A stretch of DNA of 37,646 nt from Thermosphaera sp. (GCA_020833525.1 JAJHRV010000001.1:1-37646), one strand, 5' to 3'; positions 2,850-5,157 are shown, counted from the first letter of the stretch. The notes: generated from the letters alone by a model not told the origin. Program-made: numbers and translations.

Positions 2850-3728
2850 ATGAACCTTAATTGGAACACAATAAATAAAGTTGCCGACGCACTATTAGTA
2901 ATATCTCTAATCTTACTGTTGAGCATACCTAGTCACACCACGATTGTGAGGGCAGGTCAAGACGATAGCAATGATAAAGAAGTAGGCGTGGAATGGCTGG
3001 AGATATACTATGATTTATCAAATCTAACATGGACACAAGAAGAAGCAGAAGGATTTTACAATGCACTCGGTGATAAAGGGTGGACAAAGAGCTTTAACTG
3101 GGGGAATGATCTGGCCTGGGAAAGCGATTTTGAAGATCCAAGCGTGGGAGGATCTGATTATGTTTGGATAGACTCTGTGGACTTTGCATGGTTTGCAGGG
3201 CATGGAGCACCATGGGGTTTTTATTTCTCTAGAGATCACGATGGTGACCATTTTCTAATTAAACTTGTTCACTATACAGAGGTGAAATGGGGAGATAAAG
3301 ATCTAGAATGGATTGTTATTTCAGGGTGTGAAGTTCTTCAATGGAAGCCGGAGGGTCTACCAGACGCAATAAATAGATGGGGCCCTGCTTTTAAAGGCTT
3401 ACACGTAATGATGGGTTTCGACACGGTTCGATATGATCGACTGATATGTTTACATCCATGGGGACCATGTGTATCCCCTGGCGAGAGGATGGTAACGTAT
3501 ATGACAAGAAGTTGGCCCGGTCCTGTACCGATTGGCTATGCGTGGAGATTGACAACCGGAGACTGGCAGCCCGATGATGTTTATGCCGCATTATTAGCCG
3601 TGGTAGATAATTACAATGGATATTTCTATGATAATGACTATCTACCGGGATATGGTTATGTTGGGCCAGATATAGATGATCCGATGCAACCGGAGTATGG
3701 ATTTGTATATAGGAGGTGGCAGTGTTGA
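2850..3728 (+). CDS. Membrane-anchored or secreted protein with a clan-CD-like His/Cys dyad (putative cysteine peptidase; family not recognised)
   Basis: The ORF has an N-terminal hydrophobic anchor (ADALLVISLILLLSIP). The motifs FAWFAGHG (His codon 3201-3203) and EWIVISGCE (Cys codon 3327-3329) lie 42 residues apart. ATG 2850 follows the SD-like GGGGTG; the track start is GTG 2844. Confidence 0.6.
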   Translation: MNLNWNTINKVADALLVISLILLLSIPSHTTIVRAGQDDSNDKEVGVEWLEIYYDLSNLTWTQEEAEGFYNALGDKGWTKSFNWGNDLAWESDFEDPSVGGSDYVWIDSVDFAWFAGHGAPWGFYFSRDHDGDHFLIKLVHYTEVKWGDKDLEWIVISGCEVLQWKPEGLPDAINRWGPAFKGLHVMMGFDTVRYDRLICLHPWGPCVSPGERMVTYMTRSWPGPVPIGYAWRLTTGDWQPDDVYAALLAVVDNYNGYFYDNDYLPGYGYVGPDIDDPMQPEYGFVYRRWQC

Positions 3729-4654
3729 GGTTGAATCCTGTACTTAAATTATTAATTTCAATAGGATTATTCACCGTAGTAGTAATGTCTTTGGTACTGA
3801 TCATATCTGTAAACAGATCGCCCGGTGACTATGGTGCAGAAGTTGTAGTTGTTGAAGCAGAGTTGCCGCGTGTTCCAGGCGAGATAGATGTTCTTGAAGT
3901 GCAATCCATGAATTTATCTAGGGATCAAGTTAAATTAATTGCTAATAGTGTTTTCAACATATCTGTAGACCCTATTTATGAGAACAATAGCTGGGTGTTT
4001 GTAAGTGGCTGGAAAGAGCTTAGAATCTATACTACCGGTAATATTAGGTTCTATGATCACGAGAAAATGCAGAAAACATTTCTAAGAAGAGAAGAAATCA
4101 TGCCCATTGATAAATACATTCAATTAGCGAGAGATTTCGTTGAAAAGCTTAAACTATATGGTTTAATACCATGGAAGATAAGCATCGAGTTAAATAAATC
4201 CAGAGAGGATGTTCTTGCATACGATGAAACCATAATTGGCACTATAAATGGCTCTAGAACCTACTATATAAACAACGTCCACGTGAACTTTGATCTCTAC
4301 TATGATGGAGTGAGAATATGGGGTAGTGGTGGAAAAGTTAGAGTGTACTTTGGTAGAGATGGGGAGATCATAGGGTTTATAGGAGACTTCTGGAATATAA
4401 AGTCCACTCGTAAAGTGCAATTAATAAAGCCGGATGAGGCTATTCAGAAACTGAGAGAAGTGGGGTATGGCAGCTCAATGCCGAGGTCTATGATTAGCAG
4501 AGTTGTCATTAAGTCGGTAGAGCTCGTATACTATGCACCTACACCTGGTGCAGAAAGCACTGTTATCATACCAGTTTATCATATCAGGGGATTTTTAATT
4601 GGTAAGAATAATGAAGAGGTGGAGTTTGTACAATGGGTTCCCGCAGTATATTGA
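3725..4654 (+). CDS. Membrane-anchored exoprotein, unknown function (C-terminal PepSY-like pattern)
   Basis: The N-terminus RLNPVLKLLISIGLFTVVVMSLVLIISV is a basic stretch plus a TM helix. AGGAGG lies at 3711-3716. TTG 3725 overlaps the upstream stop (TTGA); the track start is GTG 3716. The C-terminus KPDEAIQKLREVGYG...VELVYY...PVYHIRG resembles a PepSY-type module. Confidence 0.55.
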   Translation: MRLNPVLKLLISIGLFTVVVMSLVLIISVNRSPGDYGAEVVVVEAELPRVPGEIDVLEVQSMNLSRDQVKLIANSVFNISVDPIYENNSWVFVSGWKELRIYTTGNIRFYDHEKMQKTFLRREEIMPIDKYIQLARDFVEKLKLYGLIPWKISIELNKSREDVLAYDETIIGTINGSRTYYINNVHVNFDLYYDGVRIWGSGGKVRVYFGRDGEIIGFIGDFWNIKSTRKVQLIKPDEAIQKLREVGYGSSMPRSMISRVVIKSVELVYYAPTPGAESTVIIPVYHIRGFLIGKNNEEVEFVQWVPAVY

Positions 4655-5157
4655 AGAGTAAAGTTTTTTGGATTTCTCTGTCCTTACTAATGGTATTACT
4701 CGTGATATCATACTTGGTTTTATCACAGCCGAGAGTTTCGCTGGGTGGGAAGGTTAAAGAGATAATTGTTCATTACCAAGATGGTGAGACATTGACACTA
4801 AACTCGTCATCTCCGGGTTTTGAGAAGCTCTTGACATCGATTGAAGATGTACTTAGCCACTTGTATGGACTCGCTGTATGTGTCTTTACTAAGCAACATG
4901 TTGAATTAGTGAAGAGTGAGTCTACGTATGTAGAAGTAGTGCTTGATAAACCATATAATCTAACCTATATAACGCAGAATGGAGTCTACTATGAATATAC
5001 AGATAGATTAGTAATTATTCTCCAGGCAAAGGACAAGTCTGAAGAGGGGAGAGTCTATAGCACCGTTAGTGGCGAGTATTGGGGCTGTTTTAGGATATTT
5101 CCTACATGGCCGTGGTTTCAAAATCTCTTAAATACCGTTATTGAGTTAAGGAAATAA
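4633..5157 (+). CDS. Membrane-anchored protein, unknown function
   Basis: ATG is preceded by GAGGTGGA. There is a 22-nt overlap with the upstream gene. The N-terminal TM helix is VFWISLSLLMVLLVISYLVL. I recognise no family. Confidence 0.5.
   Translation: MGSRSILKSKVFWISLSLLMVLLVISYLVLSQPRVSLGGKVKEIIVHYQDGETLTLNSSSPGFEKLLTSIEDVLSHLYGLAVCVFTKQHVELVKSESTYVEVVLDKPYNLTYITQNGVYYEYTDRLVIILQAKDKSEEGRVYSTVSGEYWGCFRIFPTWPWFQNLLNTVIELRK

Follow-up and report, generated by a model that had tools for sequence, protein, structure and literature searches.

In clan CD peptidases, the catalytic dyad lies at the C-terminal ends of strands β3 and β4, a Gly beside the catalytic His is conserved in all families, a small sheet is carried on the loop after the His, and loops L1, L3, L4, and L5 shape substrate binding (PMC4357240). 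Proteins with PepSY-, YycI-, or BLIP-type folds are proposed to act by binding a partner domain, located either within their own polypeptide or in another one: M4 propeptides are intramolecular inhibitors, YpeB controls SleB, and YycI regulates the WalK histidine kinase (PMC4282423). In Bacillus spores, YpeB is a separate PepSY-type protein, encoded in one operon with the extracytoplasmic hydrolase SleB and both needed for and inhibitory to it (PMC4282423). Here we describe three overlapping genes (genes 1, 2, and 3) at positions 2850–5157 of a 37,646-nucleotide stretch of DNA from Thermosphaera sp. (GCA_020833525.1 JAJHRV010000001.1:1-37646; the whole stretch is referred to as the window), the first two of which bear resemblance to these two groups of proteins. 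With a probability of about 0.55, we favor the explanation that genes 1 and 2 make up an extracytoplasmic protease module of two components, in which gene 2 would serve as a prodomain supplied in trans to the gene 1 product, and that gene 3 is an accessory gene.

Gene 1 had been set down in the original prediction as an orphan that fits no family, a description that gave way to assignment of the protein to DUF6345 (PF19872), a catalogued, uncharacterised Pfam family found across Archaea and Bacteria (E-value, 4.3e-58; 196.8 bits, against a cut-off of 26.9; model positions 2–218 of 221). A word-indexed search returned 76 clusters of gene 1 homologues, 43 of which were aligned, with the DUF6345 match present in all of them (43/43). 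His118-Gly119, Cys160, His185, and Trp232, and also Glu48 and Trp147, are invariant in this alignment. The AlphaFold2 (AF2) model generated from the 43-homologue alignment (predicted local distance difference test score (pLDDT), 93; predicted template modelling score (pTM), 0.85) has the alpha/beta fold of clan CD, with a central, mostly parallel sheet and flanking helices. In a Foldseek search of the PDB with this model, the top 50 matches were all clan CD proteins (E-values down to 3e-6; probability, 1.00; template modelling (TM) scores, 0.35–0.44), including SAVED-CHAT (E-value, 3e-6), caspase-1/4/6/7/9/11, MALT1, and gingipains R/K. Because His118-Gly119 and Cys160 directly follow consecutive strands of the predicted model, which also contains a small beta element between His118 and Cys160, the candidate dyad fits the clan CD arrangement. 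Across the collected loci (~88), the His and the Cys are conserved in 90/90 aligned domains and Gly119 in 85/90, with Glu48 (84/88 aligned domains), His185, and Trp232 (90/91 each) being near-invariant. Such invariance, together with the predicted fold, upholds the protease-type His/Cys dyad proposed earlier for this gene. At the sequence level, Peptidase_C14 was matched weakly and below threshold by 3/43 family members (best E-value, 0.003), and significant similarity of gene 1 to C14, C25, C11, C13, C50, C80, or CHAT was not found. Gene 1 thus appears, on the basis of the model, to represent a separate family that shares the clan CD fold and dyad and has no place in a known family of the clan.

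The N-terminus of the gene 1 product is most likely a cleaved signal peptide through which the protein is secreted, rather than an anchor. In its archaeal relatives, a hydrophobic stretch is followed by V/A-x-A and then by a conserved G-(N/Q)-D-D, corresponding to the start of the mature protein. Bacterial relatives have lipoboxes at the equivalent position; in a large group of bacterial members, however, no signal of any kind is present. Since the A-x-A-like cleavage motif follows the hydrophobic segment, the gene 1 product is probably released. The expectation that all three products are membrane-anchored outside the cell is thus retained for the extracytoplasmic N-termini and abandoned for the anchoring of gene 1.

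Several DUF6345 proteins carry additional domains. Hemopexin repeats occur in P0061 (and, by Pfam labels, in P0059) from Odinarchaeota and relatives, and their insertion point in P0061 lies ~5 residues beyond the predicted catalytic Cys. A CBM96 carbohydrate-binding module is located at the N-terminus of P0013, and a PKD domain was found in one aligned member, probably P0036, whose N-terminus is extended. These extra domains hint at defined targets.

The gene 2 product belongs to a family of 209 clusters (at 50% identity) gathered by exhaustive HMMER searching, for which no Pfam entry exists; the word-indexed search returned a single close relative. Its AF2 model (pLDDT, 91.6) consists of an N-terminal helix and three alpha/beta modules, and was matched by Foldseek to an uncharacterised Eubacterium protein (5coz; E-value, 2.8e-8) and to YycI (2o3o; E-value, 5.6e-8; TM-score up to 0.58), as well as to the propeptide chain of the M4 enzyme vibriolysin MCP-02 (3nqz_A; E-value, 1.4e-3; TM-scores, 0.29/0.47). 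The predicted structure shows the layout of YycI, an N-terminal transmembrane helix followed by a domain with the YycI fold on the extracytoplasmic side; the hydrophobic stretch of ~23 residues is flanked by basic residues on its N-terminal side and lacks an A-x-A site. Within the family, conservation is highest in the FTP-like beta-hairpin, which the family profile aligns weakly to the fungalysin Mep prodomain (4k90_B, M36; E-value, 0.033). The C-terminal module is composed in the AF2 model of a helix (residues 236–246) and three strands (residues 257–270, 280–293, and 298–306), and the family profile matches YycI (2o3o; E-value, 0.0066) in this last module only. Among 66 relatives of gene 2, weak Pfam matches were obtained to DUF4901 (7), YycI (5; best E-value, 8.8e-7), FTP (4), and PepSY (1). 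The earlier description of gene 2 as PepSY-like therefore holds for the class of fold, through the structural matches to YycI and an M4 FTP-PepSY propeptide, and fails as Pfam membership. A match of gene 2 to a glypican (Dally-like; E-value, 0.005), reproduced by neither the family profile nor the fold search, was dismissed as chance.

The association of the two families was surveyed in one genome per species (GTDB), which returned 80 DUF6345 loci, all ORFs (open reading frames) of which were searched with profiles. A gene 2 relative accompanied DUF6345 in 80/80 loci, encoded directly downstream in 72 and joined with it into a single ORF in 8. The taxa represented include Hydrothermarchaeota, Methanoperedens, Bathyarchaeia, Archaeoglobales, Hadesarchaea, and Thor- and Heimdallarchaeota, as well as Roseateles, Kordia, Actinomycetes, Chloroflexota, Planctomycetota, and others. 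In each of five metagenome contigs with distant gene 1 relatives, an unannotated gene of 240–302 amino acids lies directly downstream and aligns with gene 2 (e.g., 42% identity; E-value, 2e-85). Conversely, when two distant gene 2 relatives were taken as the starting point, DUF6345 was again found next to them or fused with them, in one case as two pairs in tandem. The gene-2-like part of the fusions is always N-terminal (~residues 15–305) and DUF6345 C-terminal (~400–700); a further fusion was found in P0201, and a candidate one, annotated just as 'DUF6345 domain-containing protein', is encoded on a Deinococcus megaplasmid, where it sits between insertion sequence (IS) elements. An N-terminal hydrophobic segment was present in both genes at 29 loci, in neither at 42, and in one only at 9 (Fisher p = 1.4e-12), in a crude localisation test that is defeated by extra domains or frameshifts at most of the 9 discordant loci. 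The pair accordingly exists in extracytoplasmic and cytoplasmic forms, both proteins sharing a compartment. As judged from gene order, the pairing of genes 1 and 2 is obligate, and the adjacency, prodomain-like fusions, and co-localisation taken together argue strongly, on comparative grounds, that the two are directly related, both physically and functionally. We also observed tandem duplications, either DUF6345-partner-DUF6345-partner or DUF6345 with two partners, at L092 (3160–6967), L053 (5965–10682), L062 (5983–9170), and L040 (89–3432).

In the explanation that we favor, the gene 1 product would be exported through the cleavable signal peptide and fold as a caspase-hemoglobinase (clan CD-type) domain, in which the His118/Cys160 dyad would cut peptide bonds. 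The gene 2 product would be held in the membrane by its N-terminal signal-anchor, with three modules of the YycI/FTP-PepSY kind exposed outside the cell, and would bind the gene 1 product as a trans-supplied prodomain, acting as a folding aid, as an inhibitor until the enzyme is needed, and/or as a cell-surface tether. Gene 3 would provide a small anchored protein that sometimes travels with the pair and works without it. The gene structure, the DUF6345 assignment, the predicted folds, the invariant dyad, the pairing and fusions, the shared localisation, and the deletions and selection are direct results of the analysis; proteolytic activity of gene 1, binding between the two products, the direction of regulation, an inhibitor, chaperone, or tether role of gene 2, signal-peptide cleavage, and transcription as an operon are inferred.

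Several points weigh against this explanation. The placement of gene 1 in clan CD is by predicted structure with modest TM-scores, neither the protein nor its profile matched any PDB sequence, and RefSeq labels the members just as 'DUF6345 domain-containing protein'. Gene 2 of the window matched neither the PepSY (PF03413) nor the YycI (PF09648) Pfam model, and its match to FTP (PF07504), over residues 184–222, falls below the cut-off (E-value, 0.0014; 18.9 bits, against 21); its best-characterised structural match, YycI, controls a histidine kinase and not a protease. Weak Ig-like matches in two of the fusions suggest an Ig-like spacer between the two parts. About half of the pairs have no transmembrane segment or export signal, and the existence of these cytoplasmic pairs implies that anchoring or tethering is not the core role. 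Finally, genes 1 and 2 are dispensable, having been lost in contigs about 92–97% identical to the window.

This loss is documented by the comparison of closely related contigs. One of them (L001; 93% nucleotide identity) contains the pair and the first part of gene 3, and three others (L009, L010, and L011), about 92–97% identical in DNA to the window, have gene 3 and the same two flanking operons without genes 1 and 2. The flanks are oxoacid:ferredoxin oxidoreductase (OFOR) operons, as named from the Pfam labels of the near-identical L009 and L010 genes, and their products are 97–99% identical in amino-acid sequence to those of L009/L010 where measured. In L009, which is 96–97% identical to the window over 13 kb, blastn aligned window positions 2300–2852 with 9424–9973 and window positions 4612–5400 with 9980–10771, leaving of gene 1 its ATG and of gene 2 its final ~13 codons (…EDVEFTQWIPAVY and the stop codon). 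About five codons of gene 1 and the gene 2 tail are retained in L010/L011, with a junction differing from that of L009. The tail left behind still ends in the VPA motif seen at the C-terminus throughout the family; this, and the traces of the two genes' outer ends in all three contigs, indicate loss there, not insertion or gain in the lineage of the window. A horizontal-transfer island was rejected on account of these remnants and of a GC content (40.1%) slightly below that of the window (43.7%).

Between the window and L001, the ratio of nonsynonymous to synonymous substitution rates (dN/dS) is 0.70 for gene 1 and 0.27 for gene 2; it is 0.17–0.26 for gene 3, including lineages without genes 1 and 2, indicating purifying selection, and 0.05–0.10 for four genes of the downstream OFOR operon. 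Homologues were found for genes 1, 2, and 3 alike, and as dN/dS is below 1 for each of them, the three ORFs are real genes and not chance ORFs. The 52 differing positions between gene 1 of the window (2850–3728) and that of L001 (773–1648) are concentrated at residues 57–65, 116/120, 158–161, and 193–216, in loops beside the predicted dyad. These variable stretches appear to be the equivalents of L1, L3, L4, and L5 in the model, although the assignment is post hoc and comes from one pairwise comparison, and the variation may reflect diversifying selection on substrate-binding loops, again as seen in that single comparison. Variation is locally concentrated in the stretch between the OFOR operons, a hotspot: the synonymous substitution rate (dS) against L009/L010 is 0.18–0.29 for gene 3, several-fold above that of the flanking OFOR genes (0.04–0.09), and the promoter region (2665–2843) is not alignable at all in L010/L011.

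Strain-variable presence and the rapid change of gene 1 favor a rival explanation, a conflict module (effector-immunity or toxin-antitoxin), in which gene 1 would be a protease used as a weapon, which archaea secrete and many bacteria keep in the cytoplasm, and gene 2 the cognate immunity protein, protecting the producer and anchored on its surface in the secreted versions. Consistent with such a module are the partner gene, tightly linked or overlapping, that always trails the enzyme gene, the presence or absence of the pair among contigs about 92–97% identical in DNA, the fast evolution of gene 1 relative to gene 2 and the downstream OFOR genes, the concentration of its differences in the loops beside the dyad, the tandem duplicated pairs in L092, L053, and L062, and the Deinococcus megaplasmid copy between IS elements. 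However, the dN/dS values come from a single pairwise comparison and their link to active-site loops is post hoc, and in ~10% of the loci the 'immunity' part is N-terminal to the 'toxin', a zymogen-like order atypical for toxin-immunity pairs. Moreover, PADLOC gave no defence-system match (an AbiEi match with an E-value of 0.015 being noise), no relative was present in the phage collection, and the neighbourhoods inspected showed no secretion-system or polymorphic-toxin hallmarks. A conflict function is, on balance, unlikely.

The fold of gene 2 also admits a role unrelated to inhibition, as a YycI/YycH-like membrane signalling accessory that would sense an envelope cue and control a membrane partner by way of its transmembrane helix, with gene 1 acting as an enzyme that processes components of this route, or else surface or surface-layer (S-layer) proteins, possibly transpeptidase- or sortase-like. 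Clan CD includes transamidases (glycosylphosphatidylinositol (GPI) transamidase) and the sortase-like PorU. Among the structural matches of gene 2, YycI is the best characterised; it has the same layout of an N-terminal transmembrane helix and an extracellular domain and regulates the WalK kinase (PMC4282423). Neither the window nor the inspected neighbourhoods, however, have a histidine kinase or conserved membrane partner adjacent to the pair; a transmembrane mechanism would not be the common function when about half of the pairs lack a transmembrane segment or export signal; and the fusions point to a direct relation between the two domains. We regard this role as improbable, and more improbable still a gene 1 product that is a caspase-like scaffold and no peptidase, perhaps a binding protein or an enzyme with a non-peptide substrate, in a pair with a structural function at the envelope. 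Such a scaffold would agree with the lack of demonstrated sequence-level membership in a MEROPS-type family, and with Glu48, Trp147, His185, and Trp232, which are invariant in the 43 sequences and near-invariant across the loci and lie outside the dyad model. The strict conservation of the His-Gly and Cys at the canonical positions in 90/90 domains from two domains of life argues against it, inactive scaffolds such as pseudo-orthocaspases typically losing the dyad (PMC6426788). A bolder version of the favored explanation, which we consider doubtful, would make of the module an ancient, unrecognised caspase-fold system of Archaea (including Asgard) and Bacteria, with a PepSY/YycI trans-prodomain or inhibitor of a cysteine protease, the first beyond metalloproteases and cell-wall hydrolases, and with secreted forms that are a strain-variable, fast-evolving effector-immunity weapon or surface remodeller. 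A literature search gave no report linking caspase-like enzymes with PepSY-type partners. In the favored explanation, the module would operate in the manner of an M4 FTP-PepSY zymogen or of YpeB–SleB, with a clan CD-like cysteine enzyme instead of theirs, and it is better described as a well-defined, widely distributed protease-partner pair than as a categorically new system.

Gene 3 had no match in Pfam, NCBIfam, or the PDB with either the protein or its profile; more generally, NCBIfam has no family for genes 1, 2, or 3, and PDB sequence searches with the three proteins and with the profiles of genes 1 and 3 gave nothing useful. Close homologues (P0227–P0231) were found by the word search, which detects close relatives only, and distant relatives lie right after the pair in L005/6, L012, L013, L015, and L030, with weak but consistent matches, so that gene 3 recurs next to the pair in six further contigs. 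A profile built from the distant relatives, which scores 88–234 bits on its own members, also detects a copy 3 kb downstream in L002 (E-value, 1e-16) and, in L022 (Cloacimonadota), a gene-3-like domain joined to the N-terminal end of gene 2 (E-value, 2e-6). An N-terminal transmembrane segment is present in all relatives of gene 3. Its intact state where genes 1 and 2 are deleted and its dN/dS of 0.17–0.26, in comparisons that include such lineages, indicate that gene 3 functions on its own. As far as gene order tells, gene 3 is an accessory anchored companion found in a minority of loci, mostly archaeal. Consequently, the trio proposed in the original prediction as a functional unit is replaced by a two-gene pair, and of the suggested module of protease, regulator, and anchor, the first two parts are supported by the strict pairing and fusions, while the role of anchor was rejected for gene 3, since gene 2 brings an anchor of its own and gene 3 is kept where the pair is missing. 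Kinship of gene 3 with gene 2 was likewise rejected (profile-profile probability, 2.5%). In L093, a 152-aa transmembrane-anchored protein unrelated to gene 3 is encoded (5775–6233) directly after a fused partner-DUF6345 gene, and the third position may be held by differing small anchored proteins. Large ORFs located 3' of the bacterial cytoplasmic pairs were considered as a conserved third gene and discarded, sharing no common Pfam family; one of them encodes alanyl-tRNA synthetase.

The features of the locus are listed in Table 1. Three overlapping same-strand ORFs, with a TTGA overlap at 3725–3728 and a 22-nt overlap at 4633–4654, are present as originally described, in the ORF list and in the raw sequence, and the predicted hydrophobic N-termini were recovered in all three products (AF2 helices 5–25 in gene 1 and 5–29 in gene 2). 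Concerning the start of gene 2, L004 has an ATG equivalent to 3722, and the start called in L002 is a GTG equivalent to 3716; the overlap with gene 1 is 4, 7, or 13 nt, depending on this choice, and translational coupling of the two genes is plausible with any of the starts. Direct reading of the sequence shows a Shine-Dalgarno-like motif (GGTG/GAGGTG) upstream of all three starts. The TATA-box-like element lies in an AT-rich region common to the module and the divergent OFOR operon, and may act as a promoter; its consensus occurs 11 times in the window against 5.8 expected, which is statistically unremarkable. In L009, the region bearing the element is kept, with gene 3 directly following after the deletion. 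A single transcript from the promoter region at ~2786–2840 probably carries the three genes, with their translation probably coupled, and the T runs after the gene 3 stop may act as a terminator. A scan for bacterial-type hairpin terminators found none at 5158–5180, and the sigma-70 and hairpin-terminator scans, which are bacterial and uninformative for an archaeal locus, gave counts at the level of shuffled sequence.

Table 1. Coordinates of features in and around genes 1–3 (positions in the window)
Feature	Position	Strand	Description
TATA-box-like element TTTAAATA	2786..2793	+	Exact match to archaeal consensus TTTAWATA; candidate module promoter
Gene 1 ORF	2850..3728 (alternative GTG start, 2844)	+	292 aa (294 aa from 2844)
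Gene 1 signal peptide	2850..2954	+	Residues 1–35; predicted cleavage between VRA and GQDD
Segment missing in L009	2853..4611		1,759 bp, almost all of genes 1 and 2; 6 nt instead
His118-Gly119 codons (CAT GGA)	3201..3206	+	Candidate catalytic His and adjacent Gly; right after model strand 112–116
Cys160 codon (TGT)	3327..3329	+	Candidate nucleophile; right after model strand 154–158
Gene 2 ORF	3716..4654	+	312 aa (GTG 3716), 310 aa (GTG 3722), or 309 aa (TTG 3725)
Gene 2 transmembrane signal-anchor	3737..3811	+	Residues 5–29 (TTG-3725 numbering); AF2 helix
Gene 2 FTP-like beta-hairpin (NNVHVNF..YDG..IWG.GGKVRVY)	4274..4390	+	Residues 184–222
Gene 2 C-terminal helix and three-strand module	4424..4642	+	Residues 234–306; 'PepSY-like pattern' of the original prediction
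Gene 3 ORF	4633..5157	+	174 aa; N-terminal transmembrane anchor (~residues 11–32) and ~135-aa domain
T5 and T6 runs	5158..5180 (runs at 5160–5180)	+	Candidate archaeal terminator after gene 3 stop; direct sequence reading

Elsewhere, the window is archaeal in character, with an intron-containing tRNA-Glu gene of 97 nt at 11571–11667 on the plus strand. An ORF of 1,389 amino acids (12261–16430, plus strand), ~7 kb downstream of genes 1–3, has an L009 counterpart annotated as Peptidase_S8 (large subtilisin-like), and an indel between the window and L009 is located just 5' of this ORF, between 11716 and 12088. On the minus strand (9035–10182), a DAO-family (FAD oxidoreductase) gene of 360 amino acids that is whole in L009 appears in the window as two ORFs of 154 and 210 amino acids, split by a frameshift near 9562–9580, with residues 1–186 in frame -3 and 180–360 in frame -2 by tblastn; judging from these frames, the split gene is a pseudogene or a sequencing error.

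The present assignments provide Pfam DUF6345 with a concrete candidate function, that of a caspase-fold cysteine peptidase, and define a second family, outside Pfam, as its obligate partner. If the partner is a trans prodomain, control of the PepSY/YycI type, so far a matter of metalloproteases and lytic enzymes, would reach clan CD proteases as well. A compact, widespread branch would be added to the prokaryotic relatives of caspases, with extracellular forms in hyperthermophile-like archaea and with Asgard forms, and the natural deletion variants are ready controls for the role of the module at the archaeal cell surface.

In comparison with the known clan CD peptidases (caspases/metacaspases C14, CHAT, gingipains C25, and clostripain C11), gene 1 has the caspase-hemoglobinase fold in common by prediction, with the His-Gly and the Cys each preceded by a hydrophobic strand (FAWFA-GHG and WIVIS-GC) and a small, caspase-like beta element after the His loop. 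It differs from them in that DUF6345 is a separate Pfam family without significant sequence similarity to known families, and in its compact domain of ~255 residues with the additional conserved residues Glu48, His185, and Trp232. Furthermore, we know of no clan CD enzyme with an obligate partner gene of the gene 2 type. With the FTP-PepSY propeptides of M4/M36 enzymes, gene 2 may share the FTP-like hairpin and a PepSY-like module of a helix and a sheet, and was matched structurally to MCP-02; a prodomain-like position N-terminal to the putative protease is seen in the 8 fused DUF6345 loci and P0201. In contrast to these propeptides, the two proteins of the window are encoded by separate genes in the opposite order, the gene 2-type 'prodomain' being usually separate, membrane-anchored, and encoded downstream; gene 2 has three modules versus two and misses the Pfam thresholds, and the partner enzyme is predicted to be a cysteine (clan CD-like) and not a zinc metalloprotease. 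The topology of YycI/YycH, the WalK-associated proteins of Firmicutes, is also that of gene 2, with one N-terminal transmembrane helix and an extracytoplasmic multi-module domain, whereas no two-component system is found near the pair, nor a kinase in the inspected neighbourhoods, the neighbours being OFOR operons; the partner of gene 2 is a DUF6345 protein, and many members of its family are cytoplasmic. YpeB–SleB, likened here by analogy and not by sequence, differs in its enzyme, a lytic transglycosylase there and a caspase-fold protein here, and would be the closest functional analogy for a trans-acting gene 2 partner.

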